Positions 49,603 through 63,646 of a stretch of 64,000 bases of DNA are shown piece by piece (positions within the stretch are counted from its first letter, which is position 1; every line of letters starts with the position of its first letter). Below the pieces are notes generated by a model. That model did not search any database and was not told where the DNA came from. It was given only the letters and a program-made list of their open reading frames with translations. The DNA comes from a candidate division WOR-3 bacterium (GTDB lineage Bacteria; Hydrothermota; Tepidihabitantia; Tepidihabitantales; Tepidihabitantaceae): NCBI GenBank assembly GCA_965649205.1, contig CBFGJV010000002.1, positions 68,764-132,763 on the forward strand. Reading direction: 5' to 3'. The translations under genes were made by a program, and so were the position numbers.

Positions 49603-49850
49603 TGTTAGTGGTGTTTGCCCGATTTCTCATCCGCACGTATCAGTACACTCTAGGAACAGTTCTGCCTGATTCCTGCCGGTTTCAGCCTACCTGTTCGCAG
49701 TATGCCCTGGAGGCGATACAGAAGCATGGTCTGCGGGGTTGCTGGCTGGCATTGCGGCGTGTTCTGCGTTGCCATCCGTGGGGAGGCTACGGCTATGACC
49801 CGGTGCCAAATGAAAGAAAGCCAGGAGCGGATACTAGAGGTGAGGCATGA
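49602..49850 (+). CDS. yidD: Membrane protein insertion efficiency factor
   Basis: [31 protein letters not shown]. Confidence 0.95.
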
Positions 49851-51469
49851 GTAACGATATGTGGCGCATGGCTGTCGGGTTTGTACTCATATTGGCTATA
49901 CTTTTGCTCTGGCAGGTGCTCTGGCGCCCCCGGGCAGTTTCAGTGCCGCACCCGCAGACAGGAGCAGAACAGGTTGAGAGTACGGAATTTGCAGTGGCGA
50001 AGGAATCCGCACCGGCAGAGGTTTTCCGACCGAAAAGCTTGGTACAGGTGTCAAGTGCAGTAGACCGCGAAACAACGTATGTGCTGGAGAATGAACACAT
50101 ACGGCTGGAGTTTACTAACCGCGGAGGCGCATTGAAGTCAGTCTGGCTCAAACGCTATCGGGCCGAGATGGTGCCAGAGGGCAGCGTACTCCTGGCTCCG
50201 GCTTTGTGGCGGGGAGCTGATACTATCGATTTGTCGGGTGTCATTCTGGAATCTGTGGCTGACGATTCTTCGGTATCTTTCTCGCTGGTGACAGATGACT
50301 TCAGTTTCCGGCGCCGGTTTGTCTTGGGTCGGGATTACATCCTGACCCTTAGGACCTGGCTTGCGGCTGCAGATGGTTTTGTCGTTTCTGCGGCGGATGG
50401 AATAGCAGTAACCGAGCCGAATGTGAAGGAAGACCTCTCGCATTTTCACTTCTTTGCGCGCACCGAGCGGAAAGTGCAGCGCATTGCCGCCCGCGGCTGC
50501 AAGACGCCGCAGAATGTGGCCAAGACAGACTGGGTAGGGTTGAAGTCAAAATACTTCTTTCTGGTAGTAGCAGCAGGGAAACAGGGGGAGGGAGAGGTAA
50601 AGCCCGGATTCAGCTCGGCCTGCGCTTGGGCGTTGCCTGATGGACGGATTGGTTTTGCAGCGGGGGTGGAGGGGACCGAATCGGAACTTATGCTTTATTT
50701 GGGGCCAGTGGAGTATGGCCGTCTGCGGGCTTTTGGACGCGGACTGGAGGAAGCAGTGAGTCTGGGTTGGGCCAAGCCTATCGCCCTGGGGATTTTGTAC
50801 CTTCTGCGTTTTCTCTACAGCGTGTTTCGCAACTGGGGCGTGGCTATTATCGTTTTCTCTATTTTGATGAAGGCGATTTTCTTCCCCCTGACCAGAACTC
50901 AGACCAGACAGATGCGGCAGATGCAGTTGCTACAGCCGAAGCTGAACGAGCTGAAGGCGAAGTACAAGAACGACCCCCAGACGCTGAATCAGGAGACGAT
51001 GCAGCTTTACAAACTTTACCGCATAAATCCGCTGGCGGGATGTCTGCCCATGCTGGTGCAGCTGCCGGTCTTCTGGGCGTTGTATTCGGTGTTACGGACT
51101 TTTGTGGACCTGCGGGGCGCAAGTTTCGTATGGTGGCTGAAAGATTTATCGGAGCCGGATACGTTATTTGGTCACCTGCCTTTTCTGGGGCATCCGGCCA
51201 TCGGGCTTCTGCCTATCCTGATGGGAGCTTCCTTCATTGCCCAGAATCTGCTTACTTCCACAGACAAGAAGAACTGGGCTATGACGGTGATATTTCCGTT
51301 GTTCATTACCGTGATGTTTCTGAACTTTCCCAGCGGTTTGCAACTTTACTGGTTTACTTATAATGTTTTGTCCATACTGGAGAGCGTGTTCGGCATGAAA
51401 GGAGGAATTAAATGGCTCAGCAAGAAGACCGCCTCGAGCCGACCGACCAATCCGGTCTCGCCCCTGTAG
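49847..51469 (+). CDS. yidC: Membrane protein insertase
   Basis: [44 protein letters not shown]. Confidence 0.96.
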
Positions 51470-52062
51470 CCGAGTCAGAGGAGAACCGGAAGTCAGGAGA
51501 TCAATCTCTGGCATCGGTAGCGGCTTCAAGCGGGGCTGCCGGGGATGTCCCGGATTCCGGCCAGAGCTTGCCGACAGAAAATGATGAGCAGCCAGTCGTG
51601 CCGGCGGACGAGCCGACAATGGTGCGGATGGTGCTGGATAAGTTGTTGAGCTTGATGGGTGTGAAAGGTAAAGTGGAAGTAGAGAAACAGGCAGACGGGA
51701 GCTACTACTGCAATATACACACGCGGCATGCCTCCGGTCTGCTTATTGGCCATCGCGGCAGTACGCTGCGTGCGTTGCAGTATCTGGTGCATACCATTGT
51801 GTCTCAGCGGTTTCCAGATTTGGCCCCTGTGACGGTAGATGTGGGCGGATACCGGATAAGGCGAGAGAATTTTTTGTGTAAGAAGGCGATAGCGGTGGCC
51901 CGTATAGTGCTTGAGACTAAACGGGAGATGGCACTGGATATGCTGACCACAAAAGAGCTGGAAGCGGTGGAGCAGGTCTTGAGGTCTATTCCCGGGGTTC
52001 GAGCCTACGCGCTGGGCACTGGTCACCGGCGGAACGTAGTGATAGCGCCGAAACAGGAGTAA
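51412..52062 (+). CDS. jag: Jag/KhpB-like KH-domain protein with degenerate R3H
   Basis: LLIGHRGSTLRALQYL, VDVGGYR.RRE; lies between yidC and mnmE. Confidence 0.82.
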   Translation: MAQQEDRLEPTDQSGLAPVAESEENRKSGDQSLASVAASSGAAGDVPDSGQSLPTENDEQPVVPADEPTMVRMVLDKLLSLMGVKGKVEVEKQADGSYYCNIHTRHASGLLIGHRGSTLRALQYLVHTIVSQRFPDLAPVTVDVGGYRIRRENFLCKKAIAVARIVLETKREMALDMLTTKELEAVEQVLRSIPGVRAYALGTGHRRNVVIAPKQE

Positions 52063-52077
52063 GCAAGCATAAGAGCG

Positions 52078-53466
52078 GTGGCCGGCAAGAGCGTGGCCAG
52101 AGACAGAAAGGGAAAGGGACGGGATACTATCTGCGGGCTGGCTTCACCGCCAGGTTTGGGTAGTATCGCCGTAATCAGATTGTCCGGTCCGGATGCGTTG
52201 GCGATTGTTGAGCGTCATTTCTCTGGTCCGGCACCTTCCCGGCAACCTTCGCATACCATCCGCCTGGGATGGTTTGTGGAAAATGGAGGGAAGGCAAAGG
52301 TTGATCAGGTGATGCTGGCAGTTTTTCGCTCGCCGCGTTCTTATACGGGTGAGGATATGGTGGAGATTTCTTGTCATGGGGGGCCTTTTATCGTAGAGAA
52401 AATTCTGCGGATTTTGGAACAGGCAGGTTGTCGGCGGGCAGAGCCGGGAGAGTTTTCTCGTCGTGCGGTTCTGGCTGGTAAATTTACCCTGTCGCAGGCG
52501 GAGGCAGTGCTGGAGCTGGTGCAGGCCCGCAGTCCGGCTGCTCTGCAGGCGGCGCTCGCCCGGTACGATGGTGGTTTGTCCCGGCTGGTCGGACAGTTGC
52601 TGGAAGATTTGCGGAGTCTGTGTGCGTTGGCGGAGTACCATTTGTCCTGCGATGAGTCAGACAGCGCATCTCCAGCCGCGCTGAACACTGGGGTGCGGAG
52701 TTTGCTGCATCGGTTGGACCGCATTATCCGCGAGGGAGAGCGGGGCAGGCTGGTAACAGAGGGAGCCAGAGTAGTTATCGTGGGCCGGCCTAATGTGGGC
52801 AAGTCCAGTTTATTTAATCAGTTGCTGGGAGCGGAGCGAGCGCTGGTTACTCCGCTACCCGGTACTACTCGTGACCGGCTGGAAGCCAGTGTTGTGTTTG
52901 GAGATGTGCCGGTACTTCTGTGCGATACGGCTGGTCTGGCGAGCGCTGGCCGCCAATCGGGCCAAATTGCCGTTTTGAGCCGCAGGCAGACTTTGGCGGT
53001 TTTGGAGCAGGCGGATTTGGTACTGGCGGTCTTTGACGGGTCTGAACCGTTGCGTGCTGCGGACCGACAGGTGCTGGCCGCAGTTTCCAACCGGCCGGTC
53101 TGGTATATCACAAATAAGCGAGATATACCGGGTTGGCGCGTGCCGGAAGAACTGGAATCAAAAAGAAAGCGCAAACAAGTTTGTCTAGGTATATCGGCTC
53201 TTACCGGGGACAATGTTGGCCGGCTCCGGCGGTTGCTGGAACGCAGATTCCGGTTTTCTGGCTCACCGGCGTTGGCCGCAGGGCGTCATCTGGAATTGTT
53301 TCGACAGGCGCGGGCTGCGTTGGCGCGGAGTCTGGAGGCGGCTGCGGCGGATGCGGCGGCGGCCGAGTTGAGGACGGCGTTAACCTTTCTGGAGGAAATT
53401 GACGGGAAAGGGACCGCCGGGGATGTGCTCGACCGGGTGTTCGCCCGTTTCTGCGTGGGGAAATGA
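52078..53466 (+). CDS. mnmE: tRNA modification GTPase
   Basis: IRLSG, PRSYTGED.VEISCHG, GRPNVGKSS, PGTTRD, DTAG, NKRD, FCVGK. Confidence 0.95.
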   Translation: MAGKSVARDRKGKGRDTICGLASPPGLGSIAVIRLSGPDALAIVERHFSGPAPSRQPSHTIRLGWFVENGGKAKVDQVMLAVFRSPRSYTGEDMVEISCHGGPFIVEKILRILEQAGCRRAEPGEFSRRAVLAGKFTLSQAEAVLELVQARSPAALQAALARYDGGLSRLVGQLLEDLRSLCALAEYHLSCDESDSASPAALNTGVRSLLHRLDRIIREGERGRLVTEGARVVIVGRPNVGKSSLFNQLLGAERALVTPLPGTTRDRLEASVVFGDVPVLLCDTAGLASAGRQSGQIAVLSRRQTLAVLEQADLVLAVFDGSEPLRAADRQVLAAVSNRPVWYITNKRDIPGWRVPEELESKRKRKQVCLGISALTGDNVGRLRRLLERRFRFSGSPALAAGRHLELFRQARAALARSLEAAAADAAAAELRTALTFLEEIDGKGTAGDVLDRVFARFCVGK

Positions 53467-53942
53467 ACGGCGGTCTGGAACGGTTGATGCTGTATGTGGA
53501 AGAGCCGGCAGAAAAAGCCATACAGCTGTCCCTGAGACTGGCCAAGGCACTGGATGCCAGACTTTTTGCCGTATATATCATAGATACCAGCCTGTTGCCA
53601 ACTGGTGCTCGGCGCCACCAACGGTTGTCGGAACTGGAGGATAGAGCCTGGCAGATGCTTTATGAGATTGAAAACGATGCCTCGGAACAAGATGTGAGAA
53701 TTTCCTTGCTGCTGGACCAGGGACCGCCCAAGGAAGTCCTGTTTCAACTTGTTCTAAGTTATGAAGTTGACCTGCTTGTCGTCTCGGCTTCCACCCGTCT
53801 CAATGTGATGGAGCTTATCAACCGGTGTCCGGCGCCGGTTGCTTTCGCCGGCGGGCGAAGAGAAAGCGACGGAGCGGATACGGGGTTACAGGGTTACGAG
53901 GAAAAGCCAAAAAGGAAAAAAATGAGAGAGAGGAAAGGATGA
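53463..53942 (+). CDS. Universal stress protein family
   Basis: A..L.ARLFAVYIID, G.P...L......VDLLVV, CPAPV. Confidence 0.8.
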   Translation: MNGGLERLMLYVEEPAEKAIQLSLRLAKALDARLFAVYIIDTSLLPTGARRHQRLSELEDRAWQMLYEIENDASEQDVRISLLLDQGPPKEVLFQLVLSYEVDLLVVSASTRLNVMELINRCPAPVAFAGGRRESDGADTGLQGYEEKPKRKKMRERKG

Positions 53943-54397
53943 TAAAGATTAGCGAGTTGCTGAAGCCTGAGTTCATTATTCTGGACTTGCGAGGGGAGGA
54001 AAAGGAGGAGGTTATTCGCGAGCTGGCCCGACCCCTGATAGAACGGGGGTTGATTGAAGATGAGGAGGCGTTTTTCCAGGCGATTTTGCGTCGGGAGAAT
54101 CTAGAGAGTACAGGCATTGGCGCCGGGGTGGCTCTGCCGCATGCCCGCACTCGCGCGGTGAAAGAGACAGCTCTGGCGCTGGGTCGTTCGCAACGGGGGG
54201 TGGATTTCAACAGTCTGGACGGAAAGCCTTGTCACATCGTTTTTCTCATCGCTGCGCCGGAAGACAGAAAAACAGAATACATCATGACACTGGCCCGGGT
54301 TTCGAAGCTGTTGCGTAAGGACGAGGTGCGGATTGCCCTGAATAAGGCAGACAGCGCAGAAGAAATAGTTGCCGCTCTGGCTTTGTACGAGTCGTGA
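53939..54397 (+). CDS. PTS EIIA (fructose/mannitol/nitrogen type)
   Basis: RRE..STGIG.GVALPHAR, GVDF.SLDG.P; start ATG 53939. Confidence 0.92.
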   Translation: MIKISELLKPEFIILDLRGEEKEEVIRELARPLIERGLIEDEEAFFQAILRRENLESTGIGAGVALPHARTRAVKETALALGRSQRGVDFNSLDGKPCHIVFLIAAPEDRKTEYIMTLARVSKLLRKDEVRIALNKADSAEEIVAALALYES

Positions 54398-56106
54398 GCT
54401 ACGCTTTCTGGCGGGCGAAAAACCGGTTGCTGACACTTTTGTCAGAACACGGGATTGTTCTTCGACCGGAGGAAGTACGGACAGGAGACCAGGGGGTAGA
54501 TGCGGACTTGGCCGTGCCGCTGTTTCGAATCGCCAAGGAAAAAAACGAGAACCCGGTGCAACTGGCGGAATCGCTGGCCGGGTTGGAGCTAGCGGGCACA
54601 GGCTTTACGAAGCTGGAGCCACTTCGGGGCTACTTGAATTTCACTCTGGACCGGCCTGCTTTCGCCCGGGAGGTACTGGAAGATCTGCGGCTGCGAGGCA
54701 AACGTTACGGAAGTACGGAAGAAGGAAGCGGCAGAACGGTGGTAGTCGACTACTCTTCGCCGAATGTGGCAAAGCCCTTTTCAGTGGGGCATTTGCGTTC
54801 CACGGTTATCGGTCAAGCGCTTTGCAATATCCTGTCCTGGGTAGGCTACCGGGTTATCGGGGACAATCATCTGGGTGATTGGGGCACTCAGTTCGGGAAG
54901 TTGCTGTGCGCCTTTTCTCTGTGGGGAAGCGAGGAACGATTGCAGGACGCGCCTACTGCTCATCTGTTGGAGTTGTATGTACGTTTTCACGAGGAGGCGG
55001 AGAAAGAGCCAGAGCTGGAAGAAAAGGCACGGGAGTGGTTCTGCCGTCTGGAACAGGGAGAGACAAGCGCGCGGACTCTCTGGCGTCGTTTTGTGGATTT
55101 GAGCCGGGCGGAGTTTGAGCGCATTTATGCACGGCTGGGGGTAAGTTTCGACTATACTCTGGGAGAGAGTTTTTATGAAGGACGTCTGGACGGAGTGGTG
55201 GAGCGGGCTGTACAGAAGGGCGTGGCCAGCAGGGATGCGGAAGGGGTGGTACTGATACCGCTGGAAGATTATGGCATCAAGACGCCGCTTCTGCTGCGCA
55301 AGTCGGATGGCACCAGTTTGTACGCCACGCGCGATATAGCCTGTTATGAGTATCGATTGGAGACTTGGCAGCCGGAGAAGATTCTGTATGTGGTGGGCGC
55401 AGAACAGGAGTTGTATTTCCAACAGTTGAATGCCGCATTACGGCGGCTGGGATACACCGTTCCGTGTGTGCATGTGAGTTTTGGGCTGATTCGTTTGCCC
55501 GAAGGCAGGATGTCTACGCGTAAGGGCCGGGTGGTGCTTTTAGACGAGGTGCTGGATGAGGCGGTGAGGCGGGCGAAGCTCGTGTTGACTGCTCGGGAGA
55601 TGAGCGAAGAAGAGAAGAATCGGGTGGCAGAGCTGGTGGGTATTGCTGCTGTCAAATACGCCGACCTGTCCCAGAGTCGGACTAAGGAAGTGGTGTTCGA
55701 CTGGGACAGAATGTTGTCTTTGGACGGTGATTCAGCTCCCTATCTTTTGTACGCACATACCAGGTGTCAGTCCATTCTGCGCAAGGCCGGTCAGAACGGA
55801 GAGAGATTTGCCGAAACTGATGCAGAGGGATGGAATCCGGGACCCGAGGAGTTTGCGGTGGTGAGGGGACTTGCCAAGTTTCCGGAGGCGGTGCGACAAG
55901 CGGCTACGACTTATGAACCGCATCGGATAGCGAATCAATTATTCCGTCTGGCGCAGGATTTTTCCGTTTTCTACAGCAAGGTGCCGGTGTTGAAGGCGGA
56001 AACGGAGCAACTGCAGCGGGTGCGTTTGGCTCTGGTATGGGCGACAGCTATGGTACTCAAGACAGGACTAGGCCTTTTGGGCATAGGAGTACCCGAGCGG
56101 ATGTGA
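54394..56106 (+). CDS. argS: Arginine--tRNA ligase
   Basis: VDYSSPNVAKPFSVGHLRST, DWGTQFG, KSDGTSLYATRD, MSTRKG, PYLLYAH.R, PERM. Confidence 0.96.
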   Translation: MSYAFWRAKNRLLTLLSEHGIVLRPEEVRTGDQGVDADLAVPLFRIAKEKNENPVQLAESLAGLELAGTGFTKLEPLRGYLNFTLDRPAFAREVLEDLRLRGKRYGSTEEGSGRTVVVDYSSPNVAKPFSVGHLRSTVIGQALCNILSWVGYRVIGDNHLGDWGTQFGKLLCAFSLWGSEERLQDAPTAHLLELYVRFHEEAEKEPELEEKAREWFCRLEQGETSARTLWRRFVDLSRAEFERIYARLGVSFDYTLGESFYEGRLDGVVERAVQKGVASRDAEGVVLIPLEDYGIKTPLLLRKSDGTSLYATRDIACYEYRLETWQPEKILYVVGAEQELYFQQLNAALRRLGYTVPCVHVSFGLIRLPEGRMSTRKGRVVLLDEVLDEAVRRAKLVLTAREMSEEEKNRVAELVGIAAVKYADLSQSRTKEVVFDWDRMLSLDGDSAPYLLYAHTRCQSILRKAGQNGERFAETDAEGWNPGPEEFAVVRGLAKFPEAVRQAATTYEPHRIANQLFRLAQDFSVFYSKVPVLKAETEQLQRVRLALVWATAMVLKTGLGLLGIGVPERM

Positions 56107-56160: not shown

Positions 56161-56233
56161 TGGTTGCAGGTGAAGAGGAGAGGGCGAATCCGGACGACAA
56201 CGGATATTGTCCAAGAGGAATAAGGCAAAAGCT

Positions 56234-57445
56234 ATGCGCAAGATAAACTTCGACCATGCCGCGGCCAGTCCGGTAATGCCGGAAGTGGTAGAGGCTATGC
56301 TTCCCTTTCTCACCGAACATTACGGTAACGCCCAGAGCATCCATTCGCTGGGGCAGATACCGCGACAGGCTCTGGAGAGAGCGCGAGAGCAGGTGGCAGG
56401 TCTGGTGGGTGCTTCGCCGGCAGAAATCATTTTCACCGCTACCGCTTCCGAGAGTAACAATCTGGCCTTGAAGGGGCTGGCCGCAGCCAAAGGTCGGGGT
56501 CATATTGTAGTTTCTGCCATTGAGCACCAGTCAATTCTGGGGCCGGCACGTTCTCTGGCCCAGGCCGGCTATGAGCTCACAGAAGTTTCGGTGGACCGCT
56601 ACGGTCTGGTAAGTCCGGAAAGACTCACCGAGGTTTTGCGGCCTGACACAGTTCTGGTTTCTATCCAGCATGCTAATAATGAAATAGGCACGGTGCAGGC
56701 GTTGGCGGAACTGGCGGGGATATGTCGCAGGTGGGGAGTGCTTTTCCACGCTGACGGCACAGCCGCGGTGGGGCGCATTCCGGTGGATGTGCAGGCACTA
56801 GGCGTTGACAGTTACGCCTTTTCCGCCCAGTCGTTCTATGGACCGAAAGGCGCCGCGGCTCTGTATGTGCGCACAGGTGTGAAGCTGAAGCCGCTGATTG
56901 AGGGAGGCATGCAGGAGCGCGGCCGCCGGGCCGGCACAGAGAACATCCCGGCGATTGTAGGTATGGGAAAGGCGGCGGAGCTGGCGAAACAGAATCTGCC
57001 GACCTGGGCGGAAAAGATGAAAACACTTGCTAACCATTTGCAGACAGAGTTATCCCAGAAGGTGGAACACATCGTCTTCACCGGACACCCGGAGAACAGA
57101 CTTTCCGGGCATGTGAGTTTCTGCGTGGAATACGTAGAAGGAGAGGCGCTGCTGCTGTTGCTGGACGATGCGGGTATTGCGGCCGCATCTGGCTCAGCCT
57201 GCACCGCCCGAAATCTGAAAGCTTCCCATGTGCTTTTGGCTCTGGGTTTATCTCATGCTGTGGCCCAGTCTTCGCTGGCTCTGACGTTGGGCAAGGATAC
57301 GACAGAAGAGGATGTTGCCCGTTTTCTGACAGTTTTGCCCGGGATAGTGGACAGATTACGGACAATGTCGCCGCTTTATGCCCGTTTTCTGCGGGGGGAG
57401 AATCCTTATGCGTCTGGAGGAGATCCGGACGAGGAAGGAGTGTAG
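56234..57445 (+). CDS. iscS: IscS/NifS family protein lacking the canonical PLP-binding lysine
   Basis: ASESNN, SAIEH, HANNEIGT, RAGTEN, SGSACT and SHVL present; SAHK is SAQS. Confidence 0.88.
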   Translation: MRKINFDHAAASPVMPEVVEAMLPFLTEHYGNAQSIHSLGQIPRQALERAREQVAGLVGASPAEIIFTATASESNNLALKGLAAAKGRGHIVVSAIEHQSILGPARSLAQAGYELTEVSVDRYGLVSPERLTEVLRPDTVLVSIQHANNEIGTVQALAELAGICRRWGVLFHADGTAAVGRIPVDVQALGVDSYAFSAQSFYGPKGAAALYVRTGVKLKPLIEGGMQERGRRAGTENIPAIVGMGKAAELAKQNLPTWAEKMKTLANHLQTELSQKVEHIVFTGHPENRLSGHVSFCVEYVEGEALLLLLDDAGIAAASGSACTARNLKASHVLLALGLSHAVAQSSLALTLGKDTTEEDVARFLTVLPGIVDRLRTMSPLYARFLRGENPYASGGDPDEEGV

Positions 57446-57841
57446 ATGTATTCAGAGAAGGTGATGGAACATTTCCGCAATCCCCGCAATGTGGGGGAGA
57501 TTGAGAATGCCGACGGCGTAGGTGAGGTGGGGAATCCGGTGTGCGGGGATATGATGACCTTTTATATCAAGGTGAAGGACAACGTGCTAGTGGATGTGAA
57601 GTTCAAAACCTTCGGCTGCGGCGCGGCCATCGCCGTGTCTTCCATGGTTTCGGAAATGGCAAAAGGGAAAACAATAGAAGAGGCATTACAGATAACTAAC
57701 GCTGATGTGGCCAGAGAGCTGGGTGGACTGCCGCCCAATAAGTTGCACTGTTCTAATCTGGGCGCAGATGCTCTCCACGCGGCAATAAGGGATTATCTGA
57801 AGAAGAAGGAAGAGGAAGATAAAAAAGAAACGAAGGGGTGA
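57446..57841 (+). CDS. iscU: Fe-S cluster scaffold IscU/NifU-N
   Basis: YSEKV.EHF.NPRN.G, GNPVCGD, FKTFGCG, LPPNKLHCS. Confidence 0.95.
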   Translation: MYSEKVMEHFRNPRNVGEIENADGVGEVGNPVCGDMMTFYIKVKDNVLVDVKFKTFGCGAAIAVSSMVSEMAKGKTIEEALQITNADVARELGGLPPNKLHCSNLGADALHAAIRDYLKKKEEEDKKETKG

Positions 57842-57862
57842 GAAAAAGAAAGAGAGGAAGCT

Positions 57863-58144
57863 ATGAGTATCGTGAGTGTGCCGGGTAAGAATAACAAGCA
57901 CAAGATTATGCTCTATGCGCTGTCCACGTGCGTCTGGTGCAGGAAAATGAAGGAGCTGCTCGATGCCCAAGAGGTGGCTTACGATTATGTGTACGTGGAT
58001 CAGTGTCAAGGCGAGGAGCGCACGGCGATGACCAGCAGGGTGAGAGAGTTGAATCCGCGGGGTTCCTATCCTACCTTGCAGATAGATGATGAAGTCGTGG
58101 TCGGGTTCGACGAGGACCGCGTATTGGAGTTGCTGCAGAAATGA
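57863..58144 (+). CDS. Glutaredoxin/NrdH-like protein
   Basis: YALSTCVWC, NPRGSYPT, VGFDE. Confidence 0.9.
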   Translation: MSIVSVPGKNNKHKIMLYALSTCVWCRKMKELLDAQEVAYDYVYVDQCQGEERTAMTSRVRELNPRGSYPTLQIDDEVVVGFDEDRVLELLQK

Positions 58145-58662
58145 AAACCGAATATCCGCCGGAAGTTCTTCAGCTCTATGAACGACTGGACAGGGAGGCG
58201 AAGGAAGGCGGATACATTCTGAATCCGGAACGGGATTTTGTTCTGGCTTTAGTAGAGTCGCTCGCGGTAAATACAAAACGGTACGGGTATCCGACCTGCC
58301 CCTGTCGTCTGGCTTTTGGGGAAAAGTCCAAGGACCTGGATATTATCTGTCCCTGCGATTACCGCGACGCAGACCTGGAAGAATACGGTGCCTGCTATTG
58401 TGCGCTTTATGTGACCGAGGACTGGATTGCCGGCAAGAAGCCGCACAAATCCATCCCGGAGCGCAGGCCGGCAGAGTTTATGGTTTCGGGCTATTCTGCC
58501 AAGCCTAAGAACGAAACACCGGTGGACTCGGGTCTTCCCCGGTCGCTTTCCTATCCGGTGTGGCGATGCAAGGTGTGCGGATATCTTTGTGCCCGGAATG
58601 AACCCCCGGGTGTTTGTCCGGTGTGCAAGGCGAAGAAGGAAAGGTTTGAAAGATTTTTGTAA
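58141..58662 (+). CDS. Ferredoxin:thioredoxin reductase catalytic domain fused to rubredoxin-like domain
   Basis: YG...CPCR, CPC.Y, G.CYC.LY, then WRCKVCGY...P..CPVC. Confidence 0.92.
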   Translation: MKTEYPPEVLQLYERLDREAKEGGYILNPERDFVLALVESLAVNTKRYGYPTCPCRLAFGEKSKDLDIICPCDYRDADLEEYGACYCALYVTEDWIAGKKPHKSIPERRPAEFMVSGYSAKPKNETPVDSGLPRSLSYPVWRCKVCGYLCARNEPPGVCPVCKAKKERFERFL

Positions 58663-58700
58663 AGAAGGAATAACCGGGAAGAAATAAGCAGGAGGGAAGA

Positions 58701-59003
58701 ATGAATGGAAGTCTTATTGTAGAGTTCTCGGTTGTGCCGGTAGGTACCGGTTCTACGAGCGTGAGTCATTTTGTGCGCCGAGCGCACGAAGTCATAAAAA
58801 AGAGCGGTCTGGAATGGGAGTTGAATCCCATGGGTACCTGCCTGCAGGGAGACTGGGACATAGTCTTCCGGACCATCAAGGAAGTGCACGAAGCGCTGGC
58901 CGAGATGGGGTGCGCCCGGCTGGTCACGACGATAAAGGTGGATGACCGCCGGGATAAGCCCAGGAAGATGCAGGACAAGGTGGAACGCGTGCTGGCGCCG
59001 TGA
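58701..59003 (+). CDS. MTH1187/YkoF-like thiamine-binding protein
   Basis: EFSVVPVG...SVS.FV, SGL...L.PMGT, R....IKVDDR.DK. Confidence 0.9.
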   Translation: MNGSLIVEFSVVPVGTGSTSVSHFVRRAHEVIKKSGLEWELNPMGTCLQGDWDIVFRTIKEVHEALAEMGCARLVTTIKVDDRRDKPRKMQDKVERVLAP

Positions 59004-59086: not shown

Positions 59087-60001
59087 GTGCGAGCTGCCTT
59101 ACGAAGTGACGCGTCCCGGTTTCTCCGCCCGGAAGTAGTAGCCAAGCTGAAGGGCATAGACCTGAAGGCCCGGCTGGTGGTAGAGGGTTTTTTAGCCGGC
59201 CTGCATCGTTCTCCGTATCGGGGTTTTTCGGTGGAGTTTGCCGAGCACCGGCCGTATATGCCCGGAGACGAGCTGAAACGTATTGACTGGAAAGTCTATG
59301 GTAAGACAGACCGTTTCTACGTCCGGGAGTTTGAAGAAGAAACGAATCTGCGCGCATACATTATCCTGGATGCCTCCGGCTCCATGTCCTACGCGGCGGG
59401 AAAAGGAGCGGTCAGCAAGTTTGAGTACGGTTGTTGCCTGGCTGCCAGCCTCTCCTATCTGCTGTTGCATCAGAAAGATTCGGCCGGCCTGGTGATTTTT
59501 ACCGACCGGATACAGACTTATGTACCGGCGCGCAGTTCTGCTTCGCATCTGAACGTGGTGCTTACCCAGCTGGAGCGGCAGAAGCCCGGCGGGGATACGA
59601 ACTTGTCGGTGACTTTTCACCAGTTGGCGGAACGCATCAAGCGCCGGGGGCTGGTGATTATCATTTCTGACCTATGGGATGACCAGGCCGCAGTGCTTTC
59701 GGCTTTGCGTCACTTTCGCCATCGGAGGCACGAGGTGCTGGTGTTTCATATAGTAGCGCCGGACGAAGAGAATCTCGGTCATAAACAGCCGGAGGTGTTG
59801 CGCGACCTGGAAACCGGGCAAGAAATGATGATTGACCCCCGGGTGGTGGGACCGGCGTACAGAGCGGCTTTTCAGGCGTATTTCCGCCGGTTTGAACAGG
59901 GATGTCGAGAGGGACTTATAGACTATCAGCGCATCAGAACAGACACGCCGTTTGACCGGGCGCTTTTTGCCTATCTGGAACGCCGGGAAAGGATGCGTTA
60001 G
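59087..60001 (+). CDS. DUF58 (MoxR-associated VWA) protein
   Basis: G.HRS...G.SVEFAEHR.Y.PGD...IDWK, LDASGSM, IISD. Confidence 0.93.
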   Translation: MRAALRSDASRFLRPEVVAKLKGIDLKARLVVEGFLAGLHRSPYRGFSVEFAEHRPYMPGDELKRIDWKVYGKTDRFYVREFEEETNLRAYIILDASGSMSYAAGKGAVSKFEYGCCLAASLSYLLLHQKDSAGLVIFTDRIQTYVPARSSASHLNVVLTQLERQKPGGDTNLSVTFHQLAERIKRRGLVIIISDLWDDQAAVLSALRHFRHRRHEVLVFHIVAPDEENLGHKQPEVLRDLETGQEMMIDPRVVGPAYRAAFQAYFRRFEQGCREGLIDYQRIRTDTPFDRALFAYLERRERMR

Positions 60002-62007
60002 TGGGGATTTCGGTTTCCGGCTGGTTTTTGCTGCCCGTGTTTCTGCTCGCATCCATACCGGTCATCATTCATCTTCTGTCCCGGTTGCGTTTGCAGCGAC
60101 GGCCGTTCCCTTCGCTGTTGTTGCTGCAAACGGTCAGGCGGGAAAAGTTTTCCTGGCTGCGCTTGCAGGAATTGATCCTGCTCGTCTTGCGTACTCTGGC
60201 CCTGCTAGCGCTTCTGCTGGCTTTTTTGCGGCCCTATCTGCGCAGCCGCATTCTCGGTCTGGAGCAGGCCCGAGACCTGGTGCTTATTCTGGACGATTCC
60301 TACAGTATGGGTTACGGTTCGCGCTGGCAGACGGCGCAAGAGAGGGTTCGGGAGTTACTGCGTCTGACCGGGAGCGGAAAGAAGCTTGCCTTTCTCAGTG
60401 CCACCGGTTATTATGTTCCGGCTGAGGTCGGCAGTCGGCAGAGAGCTCTGGTTCTTCTGGATTCGCTGGAGCCATCCGGCCCGGCTCCGGTTCTAGGGCC
60501 GGTGCTGAGTCGGGGTCTAGGCGTGGCCGAGTCATTGCGAGCGCAGGTCATAGTTATTACCGACCTGCAGGAGCGAGCCATACCTGAGGATCTGGAGCTG
60601 CCGCCAGGAGTGGAGCTGATTCTGGAGGATGTGGCGTCTCCGTTTGGAAGCGGACGAGGAACCGGGCGGGAACCGGGGGAGGATAATGCGGGCATAGCCC
60701 GCTTGTACCCGGCGGGAGGGATGGTGGTGCCGGGACGACCTAATCAGTTGTGTGCCGAAGTGGTGAATTACGCGGAAAAGAAAACGGTAAGGACGTTGAC
60801 TCTGGAAGTAGAGGGCAGACGGGAAAGCCGGATGCTGGAGTTGAATCCCGGCGGCCGCCTGACCTACACCTTTGAAACCCAACTGGTTCAGCCTGGTACC
60901 TACGTATGCCGGGCGGAGATTTCGCCGGACTCTCTGCCCGTTGACGATGTCCGCTGGCTGGTTGTCCATCTGGGAAAGGTAATTCCGGTTCTGGTCGTGG
61001 AATCAGAGGCAGGGTCGGGCAGATACCTGGTCTCGGCTCTTACTGCCGACTCGGCAGCTGGTTTTGTGGTGACGGTTACAGGTACAACTGCCTTGTCCCG
61101 GGAGAATCTTACTCAGTACCAGGTGGTCATCTGCACCGACCCGGCAGCATTGAGACCGGCGGACTGGAACCGTCTGGAGCATTTTGTGCGCGCTGGCGGA
61201 GCCTGTCTGTTTCTGGCCGGTGAGGGGTTTGGCAGTTTTGCCGGTCCGGGCAGCTGGGTGGAAGCCACAAGCACAGCAAGGCTTACCGGTTTTCTTTCTA
61301 TACAGACCCTTGACACAACTCATCCGACACTTTGGCGTTTGCAGCCGGGGATTTTTTCTTCTGTGCACATATGGAGGCGGCCGTTGCTCAAGGTGCGGGA
61401 GGGCAGAATTCTGGCTACCTTTTCAGACGGGTCTCCGGCTGTTTGCGAAAGTCCCGACGGTCGCAGCATAGTCTGGGCAATTGCTCCGGTCCCGGAGTTT
61501 TCCGATTTGGTGTATCGGGCCGTTTTTGTTCCTTTCTTACATCAGACGGTTGCTTATCTTTCGCAGAGTCTCAGGCAGACAGAGTTTGCGGCAGGAGACA
61601 CTATCCGTCTACCGGTGGGCGAAGCAGTTGCCGTCACGGTGGTCAGTCCGGGGGCACGGACGGTTGCGCAGTCGGTTCCGGAAGGCGGCCAAGCCTGGGC
61701 AGTGTGGAAGAACACGCGGGTTCCCGGCGTGTATTCCTTTATCTGGGAAGGTGCGGGGGGCGAAAAGAAGGAAATGAGCGTGGCCGTAAATCCTCTGGCG
61801 GAAGAGGGGGACTTGAGGCGGGCGCGTCCGGAGCGACTTGCCAGCAGGGGTTACAAGGTGCGACCGGTAGGACTGAGTTATGCCGCAGACTTGTCTGTGC
61901 CTCTGTTGTTTATTGCCGCAGCAGCCTTCTGTGCGGAGATGTTACTGCTGTTTGCGAGCAGGGAGAAAGCCAGATTCCGGCAACAGCAGGAAATCCGGAC
62001 TAGATAA
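60001..62007 (+). CDS. BatA N-terminal plus VWA membrane protein
   Basis: IPVIIHLL, FPSL.LL, LLVLRTL, LDDSYSM, ITDLQ, D.L..DD.R, AVN...EGDL, C-terminal TM. Confidence 0.88.
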   Translation: MGISVSGWFLLPVFLLASIPVIIHLLSRLRLQRRPFPSLLLLQTVRREKFSWLRLQELILLVLRTLALLALLLAFLRPYLRSRILGLEQARDLVLILDDSYSMGYGSRWQTAQERVRELLRLTGSGKKLAFLSATGYYVPAEVGSRQRALVLLDSLEPSGPAPVLGPVLSRGLGVAESLRAQVIVITDLQERAIPEDLELPPGVELILEDVASPFGSGRGTGREPGEDNAGIARLYPAGGMVVPGRPNQLCAEVVNYAEKKTVRTLTLEVEGRRESRMLELNPGGRLTYTFETQLVQPGTYVCRAEISPDSLPVDDVRWLVVHLGKVIPVLVVESEAGSGRYLVSALTADSAAGFVVTVTGTTALSRENLTQYQVVICTDPAALRPADWNRLEHFVRAGGACLFLAGEGFGSFAGPGSWVEATSTARLTGFLSIQTLDTTHPTLWRLQPGIFSSVHIWRRPLLKVREGRILATFSDGSPAVCESPDGRSIVWAIAPVPEFSDLVYRAVFVPFLHQTVAYLSQSLRQTEFAAGDTIRLPVGEAVAVTVVSPGARTVAQSVPEGGQAWAVWKNTRVPGVYSFIWEGAGGEKKEMSVAVNPLAEEGDLRRARPERLASRGYKVRPVGLSYAADLSVPLLFIAAAAFCAEMLLLFASREKARFRQQQEIRTR

Positions 62008-62371
62008 TCAACCCGGTACGTAGGTAGTGAACGTAGCGGGAAAAGACGCTTTCGTCTTCCAGTATGGCTACCCGGCTGATGACCGCGCACCCTTCTTCGC
62101 AGGTGACCTTGAGACCGTAAGCCTGGTGCCCGGGTTCGCGCACCGTATAGCCCAAGTCGTAAACCTCTTCCGCTTTCTGGTAGCCGCGGCCGGTGACAGT
62201 TTCCATAAATGCGGCCAGGTTGTCGGCCAGAGCCGAGAGAGCGGCCTGAGTTTGCAGAGGGTTGAGCAGCGGAATGCGGATTACCTCGCCGCCCATGGAG
62301 CGGGCGTCCACTACTTCGGCGCGGTCGGTGTCAAGATACTGGCGCAGCTGGTTCAGTTCCCCTGAATTCAT
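62000..62371 (-). CDS. Hypothetical protein
   Basis: 123-aa ORF with promoter TTGACA(62408)-N16-TAGAGT. Confidence 0.7.
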   Translation of the reverse strand: MNSGELNQLRQYLDTDRAEVVDARSMGGEVIRIPLLNPLQTQAALSALADNLAAFMETVTGRGYQKAEEVYDLGYTVREPGHQAYGLKVTCEEGCAVISRVAILEDESVFSRYVHYLRTGLII

Positions 62372-62404
62372 AGCTGACTAACTCTAGCCCGGCCGTTCTG
62401 GCTG

Positions 62405-63646
62405 TCAAGCCAGGTCAAGCATCATATGAGCGTGCACGCGAGCGTCGTCCACCATATCGGCTATGACGCAGTATTCGTCCGGCGCATGGGCTTTGCCCCG
62501 GTACTTGCCCCAGACTACTGCAGGTATTCCCCGACGGCGGAAGAAGGCTGCAACAGTGCCACCACCTATTCCCTTGAGTACGGGTTTTTTGTGATATACC
62601 GCCTCTATGGCGCGACTAAGCAAACCCACAACCGGAGCATCAGGCGAAGTGGGAGGTGCTGCCGGCGCCAGCTGTTCGGTCTGGACTGTTATCTGCAGAC
62701 CGAATTCCCGGGCGGTTTCTTCTGCCAGTCGCCGGACGTCGGCGAGTATGTCTTCCAGCCGGTATTGAGGAAGTATGCGGCAGTCGAAATAGAATACGTC
62801 CTGAGCAGGAATGGTGTTTATGTTAGGCACATTGGCTTCCTTCTTCGTGGGCTCGAAGGTAGAAAGGGGAGGGGCAAACAGTTCGTCCCGGAGCTGGTAT
62901 TTTTCGTGCAGTTCTTTGTCCAGCCGCACCAGAAGATGCGCTCCCGCCCGGTGGGCGTTGGCTTGGGGAGCAGAGGCGTGGCTTTGTCTGCCCTGGACTG
63001 TGAACTTGAGCCAGAGGATAGACTTCTCGGCTATTTCTATCATGGTGCCTTCTTCGTTGCCTGCGTCTGGCACAACCACAAGGTCGTCGGGCTGGCACAG
63101 GTCGTATTGGGAGAGCAGCCAGTCTGCGCCCAGAGCCGAGCCGGTTTCTTCGTCCGCTACCAGCATCAGACACACTTCGCGCGCCGGCTGCAGACCCAAA
63201 TCCAGAAGGGCCTTGAGCGCAAAGCAGGAAGCCACCAATTCCTGCTGGTTATCTTCGGTGCCCCGTCCGTACAGTTTTCCGTCTTCTACAGTGGCCGCAA
63301 ATGGCGGATGCGTCCATAATTCGACAGGTCCGGCCGGAACCACATCCAGATGGGTCATTATCCACAGAGCTGGTCTCTGGCTTTGCCCGGAGGGCGGTTT
63401 CCATCTGGCTACGAGACTTGGTCGGTATCCACAGGGAGCTTGTGGGTCTGGCGCCCGATATTCGGTGACTTCCAGTCCCCAGCTCTGCAAAAGGGGACGC
63501 AGGTAGTCAACCCGTTCTTTTTCTCCTGTTCCGCCTGATTTCGGACTGATGGCCGGTCGGCGCACCAGTTCTTTCTGGAGCGCTATCATTTCCGGTTCCA
63601 ACCGACCTATGTAATCGAATACGGTCTGAAATTCTGCCTGTTTCAT
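62405..63646 (-). CDS. M20 family metallopeptidase (DapE/ArgE-like)
   Basis: HLDVVP.G, YGRGTEDN, DEETGS, G.QSHAS, GGGT, AH.PDEY. Confidence 0.9.
   Translation of the reverse strand: MKQAEFQTVFDYIGRLEPEMIALQKELVRRPAISPKSGGTGEKERVDYLRPLLQSWGLEVTEYRAPDPQAPCGYRPSLVARWKPPSGQSQRPALWIMTHLDVVPAGPVELWTHPPFAATVEDGKLYGRGTEDNQQELVASCFALKALLDLGLQPAREVCLMLVADEETGSALGADWLLSQYDLCQPDDLVVVPDAGNEEGTMIEIAEKSILWLKFTVQGRQSHASAPQANAHRAGAHLLVRLDKELHEKYQLRDELFAPPLSTFEPTKKEANVPNINTIPAQDVFYFDCRILPQYRLEDILADVRRLAEETAREFGLQITVQTEQLAPAAPPTSPDAPVVGLLSRAIEAVYHKKPVLKGIGGGTVAAFFRRRGIPAVVWGKYRGKAHAPDEYCVIADMVDDARVHAHMMLDLA

Follow-up and report, generated by a model that had tools for sequence, protein, structure and literature searches.

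A 64,000-nucleotide stretch of DNA from a candidate division WOR-3 bacterium (the window) carries a type I cysteine desulfurase paralogue, here IscS*, that is likely dead as a desulfurase, because the alignment leaves it neither the Schiff-base lysine nor the substrate-binding arginine. Its gene abuts that of an IscU scaffold, and the two products probably form a working Fe–S system. Lysine-less IscS proteins with IscU as a neighbour have been described before, in A. fulgidus and, as IscS1, in M. acetivorans; in the present family, tusA is absent from the locus and a glutaredoxin–FDR pair follows iscU. The features of the locus are the following:

56234..57445, forward strand: iscS*, type I cysteine desulfurase paralogue, 403 amino acids, predicted catalytically dead
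56753..56764, forward strand: DGTA, with D174 retained and A177 for E. coli Q183 (Ala in 21/21 family loci)
56828..56833, forward strand: CAG TCG, encoding Q199 and S200 (E. coli H205 and K206) in the motif SAQSFYGPKG; Schiff-base lysine lost
57200..57202, forward strand: C323, the mobile-loop cysteine (E. coli C328) in SGSACT, retained
57218..57220, forward strand: K329, clade-specific catalytic-loop lysine (E. coli E334)
57278..57280, forward strand: A349 for E. coli R354, by alignment
57446..57841, forward strand: iscU, MisU-type single-domain scaffold (TIGR03419, 208 bits, cut-off 187.9)
57863..58144, forward strand: glutaredoxin-like protein of methanoredoxin type, CVWC (C23, C26); PF00462; PDB 3nzn (5.8e-20) and 5cax (1.5e-17)
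58141..58662, forward strand: FTR catalytic chain fused to rubredoxin, FDR type; PF02943 and PF21349; PDB 4tpu (1.2e-57, residues 8-173)
58701..59003, forward strand: MTH1187/thiamine-binding family protein (TIGR00106, above cut-off)

The catalytic pocket of IscS* and its gene neighbours

The iscS* gene, for which a TTG at 56207 is a possible alternative start, encodes a protein that matches PF00266 (1.6e-77) and falls under every NCBIfam equivalog cut-off, the best being TIGR03402 (452.5 versus 530.75). Its predicted model (pLDDT 90.5) superimposes on A. fulgidus IscS 4eb7 with a Z score of 52.9 and an rmsd of 1.4 Å; the loop holding C323 has a pLDDT <50. The original prediction, which read a lysine-less motif, DGTA and an intact loop cysteine, is borne out on these points by alignment to E. 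coli IscS, and Ser stands at the K206 position in all 21 family loci. It erred in taking the remainder of the protein to be intact: besides R354, T12 and T76 are replaced (A11, S72). The equivalents of E. coli H104, N155, D180 and T243 are conserved in IscS*. E. coli R354 binds the substrate carboxylate. At this position the family has Val (16), Leu (4) or Ala (1), as against Arg in 44 of the 47 Lys-bearing controls, the remaining three being gapped. The Q183 to Ala change alone is no mark of inactivity, since the Lys-bearing IscS of the same genome also has Ala there. Of the hallmarks of an active desulfurase, the type I fold and the loop cysteine are present, while K206 and R354 are replaced (S200, A349). 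The loop cysteine occurs in 21/21 family loci and in all 36 aligned bacterial Lys-less loci from the motif matches listed. IscU-contact residues are retained, and C-terminal and E309/E311-region residues are better conserved in the family than in Lys-bearing controls: P385 (21/21 versus 31/47 Lys-bearing controls), L386 (21/21 versus 18/47) and R379 (21/21 versus 20/47), some controls being gapped.

Several pieces of evidence indicate that the loss is genuine. Among the best 120 of 7,954 homologues listed, the 119 others all lack both the Lys and the Arg; the serine codon varies among relatives (TCG 12, TCA 4, TCT 2, TCC 2); and dN/dS is 0.11-0.34 over 13 unsaturated pairs, which points to purifying selection. 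Together these rule out a sequencing error or a pseudogene. The GPKG lysine, suggested as a replacement Schiff base, is discarded because only 15/21 family members retain it. Among 150 cluster representatives the pocket losses are coordinated: 20 of the 23 Lys-less proteins lack both Q183 and R354, and 122 of the 127 Lys-bearing ones have the Gln, the Arg and the loop Cys.

The neighbouring genes were correctly recognized from the sequence, down to the three-Cys IscU, the CVWC glutaredoxin, the FTR–rubredoxin fusion and MTH1187, as residues and profile matches confirm. No base separates the end of iscS* (57445) from the start of iscU (57446), whose ligands are complete (C33, C58, C102, with D35, K99 and H101); iscU adjoins iscS* in 21/21 family loci. 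The grx gene lies 21 bases past iscU and is overlapped by 4 bases by the FTR–rubredoxin gene. The best matches of the two proteins include PDB 5cax, which we take to be methanoredoxin, and 4tpu, presumably M. acetivorans FDR (ferredoxin:disulfide reductase). All the features of an FDR–methanoredoxin pair are found: FTR CPC, CPC and CYC motifs, a C-terminal rubredoxin and an upstream CxxC glutaredoxin, whose motif is CGWC in 9/10 aligned family members. The grx-FDR pair follows iscU in 20/21 family loci, from which tusA is absent; the remaining member has iscS*-iscU-MTH1187 without it. This link within the family is one evolutionary event. The MTH1187 gene trails iscU across the order, even when iscU is separate from iscS*. 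A scan for promoters and terminators remained at chance level. A relative of ~91% identity spans the locus on a hot-spring metagenome contig.

Fe–S genes of the order and lysine-less IscS elsewhere

In this genome (98% complete), the locus iscU is the sole IscU match, and no match was found to SufB/SmsB (PF01458, with 14/14 controls positive), to TusA (PF01206), to TusA/DsrE2 with 67 queries, or to IscA, HscB and IscR with E. coli queries. The genome encodes 12 radical SAM matches and MnmA. Across the order, SufBD is found in 3/41 genomes and IscU in 40/41; these counts, together with the radical SAM matches, are the reason to consider the IscS*–IscU pair as probably functional. The search for another canonical desulfurase yielded one unlinked IscS with both Lys and Arg, 45% identical to IscS*. 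The proposal of a non-catalytic IscS dedicated to IscU, similar to that of A. fulgidus, is supported, while that of a "desulfurase-independent" assembly is not, a Lys- and Arg-bearing IscS being encoded elsewhere in the genome.

A Lys-bearing copy exists in nearly all relatives; it is unlinked from iscS* in the order, and in the WOR-3 loci inspected no iscU adjoins it. G026 (96% complete) and G033 (94%) encode IscS*–IscU, MnmA and 19 radical SAM matches each, but yielded neither a Lys-bearing desulfurase nor SufBD, TusA or FDR. A gene that we name lspA-like from its motif, and which precedes the Lys-bearing iscS in 5/6 loci, was not found in them either. With this usual upstream neighbour also missing, the absence of the Lys-bearing iscS is probably an assembly gap, and the two genomes are rejected as desulfurase-free proof of independence. 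Another WOR-3 genus has three 93-94% complete genomes with only Lys-less IscS, but with SufB.

Lys-less IscS proteins occur in many anaerobic phyla, mostly next to tusA. The motif scan returned at least 119 stretches, of which 80 are listed, and is blind to Lys replaced by A-initial codons, so that it provides no frequency. TusA is encoded within 1.5 kb at 54/70 Lys-less loci versus 0/48 separately fetched Lys-bearing copies, and the carrier Cys-Pro is invariant in 26/26 aligned TusAs. Residues W45, E49 and D52, described as the E. coli IscS contacts of TusA in the accessible part of PMC2854127, are conserved no better among the Lys-less proteins linked to TusA than among the controls. At two archaeal loci among the motif loci listed, iscS*, tusA and a Lys-bearing iscS lie in a row, with iscU too in one of them. 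A second IscS-like match, mostly Lys-bearing, is present in 44/50 Lys-less genomes; of the single-match genomes, 4/5 checked have a SufS type. In free trees, IscS* groups with largely bacterial sequences that are separate from the archaeal SSND clade (Archaeoglobus type); a single origin of Lys-less IscS is not rejected (AU p = 0.145; 26 rows, 22/48 dropped, simpler model). The literature covered, in which subscription journals are thinly represented and the supplements of 10.1101/2024.03.20.586028 fall outside, holds nothing on bacterial Lys-less IscS clades or on a TusA relay into them.

Sulfur source and reductant

We favor, at roughly even chances, a role of IscS* as a dead desulfurase that takes over persulfide from an external donor and relays it to IscU, the reducing electrons coming from Grx/FDR. 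IscS* would perform no cysteine turnover; it would bind IscU and, by analogy with the A. fulgidus complex, transiently ligate the nascent [2Fe-2S] cluster, while Cys323 would accept persulfide sulfur from the donor and pass it on to IscU. In most lineages the sulfane sulfur would arrive via TusA/DsrE; in this TusA-less genome it would most likely come from a pool of small-molecule persulfides or from the unlinked IscS. Against this relay count the absence from the genome of the usual carrier (TusA/DsrE2) and the three genomes of another WOR-3 genus with only Lys-less IscS, though these encode SufB; no precedent was found for direct persulfide transfer from IscS to IscS*. Co-occurrence with a Lys-bearing IscS is weak evidence, since MnmA is present and such desulfurases are, to our knowledge, near-universal for tRNA thiolation. 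In the last step, ferredoxin would reduce the persulfide through FDR and then Grx. In E. coli, the ISC ferredoxin reduces the persulfide. This step is the weakest, and taken on its own we would put it slightly below even.

The same probability, just short of one half, attaches to the view that grx-FDR is a general ferredoxin-driven disulfide-reducing module, co-transcribed with other redox genes and not acting directly on the scaffold; it fits any reading of IscS*. The predicted grx/FTR linkage is kept in the family, and two further lineages also have the pair close to a Lys-less iscS. It is not general: with Grx near 1/80 and FTR near 0/80 of the motif loci listed, Grx/FDR is not the general partner of Lys-less IscS. 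Among 80 FDR loci chosen by likeness to that of the locus, 14 have an IscS neighbour, and all 11 with a readable motif, from three lineages, are Lys-less; a Lys-bearing iscS lies beside FDR at none of the 80. This association, like the tight spacing of the pair and its retention in the family, speaks against a merely general module. For it speak the FDR loci with at least 2 kb upstream, 24/36 of which lack IscS; the unlinked position of grx-FDR in families f2, f4 and f5 of the order; its absence from one family member; locus L424, where the pair sits inside a wider stress cluster; and the fact that FDR is itself a [4Fe-4S] client.

Alternatively, IscS* may lend Cys323 as a ligand only, free sulfide being the source without any desulfurase, as in the Pagnier model put forward for A. 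fulgidus IscS (PMC8918507, accessible in part). This is unlikely, though the strongest of the other readings of IscS* itself. It agrees with hosts that are mainly anaerobes among the motif matches listed, with the hot-spring relative, and with a few draft genomes showing Lys-less copies only (G042, G064, G109, G125, G142). Yet free sulfide needs no carrier or reductant, while TusA/DsrE or Grx/FDR have been recruited as neighbours, and in G026 and G033, the best apparent desulfurase-free cases, the gene that normally precedes the Lys-bearing iscS is missing as well. Moreover, in the accessible part of 10.1101/2024.03.20.586028, E. coli UT109, grown anaerobically with Na2S, was not complemented by A. 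fulgidus iscS2U2, a weak test as M. thermoacetophila iscSU failed too. The suggestion of direct sulfide use is thereby weakened, the wider partner being the persulfide carrier TusA. An improbable option is a heterodimer in which the unlinked Lys-bearing IscS makes the persulfide and IscS* serves as the IscU dock and completes the PLP site of its partner. T243 reaches into the PLP site of the partner subunit. It is conserved in 19/21 family loci, and the general presence of a Lys-bearing copy lacking its own adjacent iscU, along with the archaeal loci holding both IscS types, would fit. T243 is equally explained by non-covalent PMP/PLP in a homodimer, as described for A. fulgidus IscS (PMC8918507, in its accessible part), and a heterodimer sits poorly with the low identity of the two proteins and their unlinked genes. 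We consider it very improbable that IscS* is still an enzyme, with K329 standing in for K206 and sulfur released from a carboxylate-less substrate. K329 is present in 64/65 members of the bacterial Lys-less clade, 0/29 archaeal Lys-less proteins and 4/47 Lys-bearing ones, and the equivalents of E. coli H104, D180 and T243 are retained in the alignment; against this, the H205, S203 and N155 positions drift within the clade, and archaeal Lys-less proteins do without the loop lysine. The top PDB sequence matches of IscS* are 9WEP, 9WER, 9WEW, 9WF8, 9WFB, 9WFE and 9WFY ("cysteine desulfurase", 406 amino acids), which have the loop Lys and stepwise pocket changes; in 9WFY the Lys, Arg and Gln positions hold Leu, Val and Pro, respectively. 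To judge from these entries' sequences, the series would read as an attempted reactivation of an inactive protein, which also weighs against an active IscS*.

Relation to known systems

A close parallel is A. fulgidus IscS, inactive as a desulfurase according to the accessible part of PMC8918507, and known from IscS2–IscU structures (PDB 4EB5, 4EB7, 4HVK) and a D199K variant (4R5F). Both proteins share the type I fold (46% identity, rmsd 1.4 Å), the loss of the K206, Q183 and R354 positions, the loop Cys and an adjacent single-domain IscU. They differ at the Lys site, Ser here and Asp there, and grx-FDR follows here; A. fulgidus has SufBC* (10.1101/2024.03.20.586028, accessible in part), whereas SufBD was not found in this genome. 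In M. acetivorans isc1, a Lys-less IscS1 lies beside IscU1 and the sulfur-carrier genes MA0809 (DsrE-type) and MA0810 (SirA-like) (PMC7585200, accessible in part); M. acetivorans also has two further complete IscSU pairs and SMS. Here, neither the locus nor the rest of the genome yielded TusA/DsrE, and a single scaffold was found. The MIS system (MisS-MisU, minimal iron-sulfur machinery) is also a two-gene unit, desulfurase-like and IscU-like, devoid of carriers and chaperones (PMC13066941, accessible in part), which resembles the pair of S and single-domain U here, where IscA, HscB and IscR were not found. By definition MisS is a cysteine desulfurase, whereas IscS* has lost the catalytic residues. 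Finally, the FTR–rubredoxin fusion and CVWC glutaredoxin resemble Methanosarcina FDR and methanoredoxin (best PDB 4tpu, 7pwe, 3nzn, 5cax), described in the accessible part of PMC7278568 as a [4Fe-4S] ferredoxin-driven disulfide relay. A role in Fe–S assembly is not among the functions of FDR found in the literature within reach, in which subscription journals are thinly covered.

The sulfur source of inactive IscS–IscU pairs is a question raised by the A. fulgidus work (PMC8918507, in the part accessible). The inactive pairs known so far belong to organisms that have other systems as back-up, and they did not work in a complementation test, as far as the accessible part of 10.1101/2024.03.20.586028 goes. 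The pair described here is probably essential rather than vestigial, because no second scaffold system turned up in most genomes of this bacterial order. Many anaerobe genes annotated as "cysteine desulfurase" probably do not encode enzymes. A small set of proteins (IscS*, IscU, the unlinked IscS, Grx, FDR and ferredoxin) would separate the sulfide, persulfide-relay and heterodimer models. A broader view, which we regard as speculative and rather doubtful, is that Lys-less IscS–IscU would constitute a distinct and widespread Fe–S route of anaerobes, arisen several times, in which IscS* would be a persulfide-importing adaptor served by interchangeable modules. Most lineages would use TusA/DsrE, and the present family a ferredoxin-driven FDR/glutaredoxin relay that draws on environmental polysulfide or small-molecule persulfides and reduces the sulfur on the scaffold; all clusters would be made without cysteine desulfurase chemistry. 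In this WOR-3 family, TusA no longer lies at the locus as it usually does, and a candidate reductant has been gained.

Active site and conservation of the IscS* family

IscS*, an IscS paralogue without the Lys206 of E. coli IscS (Lys-less), is encoded between ordinary-looking flanks.

Genes of the IscS* locus (window coordinates)
49847-56106, upstream flank: presumably yidC-, jag- and mnmE-like genes, PTS IIA, argS
56234-57445, iscS*: ORF of 403 aa, class V aminotransferase fold (profile search)
57446-57841, iscU: zero gap to iscS*, all cluster ligands present
57863-58144, CVWC glutaredoxin (Grx)
58141-58662, FTR-rubredoxin fusion (FDR), overlapping the glutaredoxin gene by 4 bases
58701-59003, MTH1187
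59087-63646, downstream flank: DUF58, BatA-domain and M20 peptidase genes

The predicted IscS* model (pLDDT 90.5) resembles type I desulfurases, with a Z of 52.9 and an rmsd of 1.4 Å against A. fulgidus IscS. In the alignment with E. coli IscS, Ser200 takes the place of Lys206, Gln199 that of His205, Ala177 that of Gln183 and Ala349 that of Arg354; the loop Cys, His104, Asp180, Asn155 and Thr243 are retained. The functions of these residues are well established. The original prediction of a lost Lys in an otherwise intact protein was right about the first three substitutions and overlooked the fourth. The loss of both the Schiff-base Lys (the Lys206 aldimine of E. coli IscS is described in available text of PMC2854127) and the carboxylate-binding Arg argues, at the level of sequence, for an absence of cysteine chemistry. 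The retained loop Cys and the stronger conservation, in the family alignment, of the C-terminus facing IscU argue for a putative role as dedicated partner of IscU, whose interface includes IscS segment 374-404 (same source, in part).

A homologue search, one of the checks set out with the original prediction, shows that the loss is shared: of the 120 top-ranking proteins out of 7,954 matches, the 119 apart from IscS* lack both Lys and Arg. The named homologues come from candidate division WOR-3, and the 29 best loci from 40 relatives are all Lys-less. A hot-spring metagenome contig covers 55807-59009 with 296 differences. The Ser codon differs between relatives and dN/dS is 0.11-0.34 (13 pairs below saturation), which, with the conservation of the family, rules out sequence damage; comparative data thus identify Lys-less IscS* as a conserved family. 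Among 150 representatives (50% identity), 23 are Lys-less, 20 of them also without Gln183 and Arg354.

Trees place IscS* in a mainly bacterial Lys-less clade (SH-aLRT 99-100); the archaeal SSND, SAHT (both named after their motifs) and Rokubacteria Lys-less clades sit among Lys-bearing proteins. A single origin of the mainly bacterial and SSND clades is not rejected (AU test, p = 0.145). SSND is also the motif of A. fulgidus IscS, in which Gln183 and Arg354 are lost as well. SAHT-type IscS, with motifs similar to those of M. acetivorans IscS1, occurs with a 211-aa extended IscU (L372-L375, L402, L403, L438), usually with tusA and dsrE2, both missing from L438; three such genomes have SufB and no other desulfurase. 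The ISC-type Rokubacteria/Methylomirabilota proteins (L069, L090, L092, L096, L098, L108, L131, L146, L147) adjoin iscU without tusA, have Leu at K206 and Gln at H104, and retain R354 and Q183, on sequence a separate kind of degeneration; two genomes encode a Lys-bearing iscS-iscU pair 6 kb downstream. In Bathyarchaeia L226, L233, L235 and L248, iscS reads SSYKI.GPRG, keeping Lys with no Arg aligned at R354; the next genes are iscU and one of SufS type.

Neighbours of Lys-less iscS

The grx-FDR pair lies 3' of iscU in 20 of 21 family loci, plus one later-fetched genome, and recurs in the SAHT and SSND lineages, so that the predicted conservation of this linkage is borne out. An IscS neighbours FDR in 14 of the 80 best metagenomic FDR loci; all 11 with a readable motif are Lys-less (7 IscS* family, 3 SAHT, 1 SSND). 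The link is real and recurrent across three Lys-less lineages, yet not obligatory, since IscS is absent from 24 of the 36 FDR loci with at least 2 kb upstream. Co-regulation in redox clusters and a direct role explain it roughly equally well.

Other families of the order also carry the grx-FDR pair, there unlinked; their iscS* has ferritin-like genes or dsrE2-tusA on its flanks. Two to four ferritin-like (PF02915) genes directly precede iscS* in families f2-f4 (L042:4028-6104, L043, L045, L046, L049, L051, L053, L054), and two precede iscU in f5; they may form an iron-supply module. MTH1187 accompanies iscU even in f5, where iscU sits apart from iscS*, which suggests a link to the scaffold. 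The 7.6-kb metagenome contig L388 carries the iscS*-iscU-grx-fdr-MTH1187 unit twice, the inverted copy being probably an assembly artefact.

A GTDB motif scan returned at least 80 Lys-less loci. Among the 80 listed, bacterial hosts are Nitrospirota, Thermodesulfobacteriota, Aminicenantes, Chloroflexota, Actinomycetota, Elusimicrobiota and Omnitrophota; archaeal hosts are Bathyarchaeia, Asgard archaea, Hadarchaea, Methanosarcinales and Thermoplasmata. Within 5 kb of these listed loci, IscU occurs at 59/80, TusA at 55/80, DsrE2 at 12/80, Grx at 1/80 and FTR at 0/80. TusA lies within 1.5 kb at 54 of 70 Lys-less loci (omitting nine Rokubacteria-type loci and one in which no 250-aa ORF could be read) versus none of 48 Lys-bearing copies, a separate set taken from the same genomes and from WOR-3 relatives. 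Beyond these controls, two Lys-bearing copies do adjoin tusA, the reason being a common operon with a Lys-less copy. Few members of the IscS* family have a standalone TusA, and the residues contacting TusA in E. coli give no signal in the IscS* alignment.

Sulfur supply and Fe-S genes elsewhere

The source genome (97.95% complete) encodes a single IscU, that of the IscS* locus, along with 12 radical SAM matches and MnmA; its search found no SufBD, TusA, DsrE2, IscA, HscB or IscR. Of 41 genomes from the order, 40 have IscU and 3 have SufBD; IscS*-IscU thus probably serves as the cell's working Fe-S machinery. A second type I desulfurase, of the kind that the original prediction asked to be looked for, is on contig C28 (SGHKLHAPKG, Arg and loop Cys present, Ala at Gln183), with no iscU beside it; given its Lys and Arg, an active desulfurase is probably supplied in trans. 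Lys-bearing IscS of the order (L001:1492-2655, L269, L271, L272, L274-L276) has Ala at Q183 throughout and keeps K206 and R354; its gene usually lies 3' of an lspA-like gene, with a tandem pair in f5. Two apparently desulfurase-free relatives (G026, G033) were discounted, since the gene normally preceding Lys-bearing iscS is missing too, a warning that such draft genomes can reflect assembly gaps. In 50 of the 80 scan genomes, searched whatever their completeness, SufBD occurs in 13 and a second IscS-like match in 44; four of five single-match genomes checked have the SufS type.

A candidate persulfide relay

The favoured reading, with about an even chance of being correct, is a persulfide relay through IscS* to IscU: sulfane sulfur from outside would pass to Cys323 of IscS*, which may double as a transient ligand, and on to IscU. 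That ferredoxin-FDR-Grx would reduce the persulfide is a tentative step, only a little short of even. The relay is preferred as the neighbours attracted are persulfide carriers and thiol reductants, neither of which free sulfide needs. Direct sulfide use, a hypothesis reported for A. fulgidus (PMC8918507, in part), is unlikely also in view of a failed complementation with Na2S (10.1101/2024.03.20.586028, available text), a weak test given that M. thermoacetophila iscSU failed in it too. Of the sulfide-fed, desulfurase-independent assembly originally proposed, the Lys-less IscS with its IscU thus stands; sulfide use is weakened, and a predicted desulfurase is probably available in trans. A heterodimer of IscS* with Lys-bearing IscS appears improbable, and an enzyme with a migrated lysine highly so. 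K329 (catalytic loop, 57218-57220) occurs in 64 of the 65 proteins in the bacterial Lys-less clade and is nearly invariant in that clade only; the GPKG Lys, which the original prediction named as a possible alternative, persists in just 15 of the 21 proteins of the family and does not qualify as a substitute.

A. fulgidus IscS and M. acetivorans IscS1 are also Lys-less and beside IscU, the latter in a cluster with DsrE- and SirA-type genes (PMC7585200, in part). MIS is described as desulfurase plus scaffold in available text of PMC13066941. A protein of this kind is already under study, as PDB 9WFY, a 406-aa protein of a recent series, carries the same losses. In the literature searched, which covered few subscription journals, no paper dealt with the bacterial Lys-less clade, with a relay from TusA or with a part for FDR in making Fe-S clusters. 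Two operons (L124:4353-7400, L143:4389-6776) combine Lys-less iscS, tusA and Lys-bearing iscS, followed in L124 by iscU twice, a natural arrangement that would suit a possible desulfurase-TusA-IscS* relay. The present study contributes a matched control for the association with TusA, and the IscS* locus an example that lacks TusA and SUF and has a candidate reductant.
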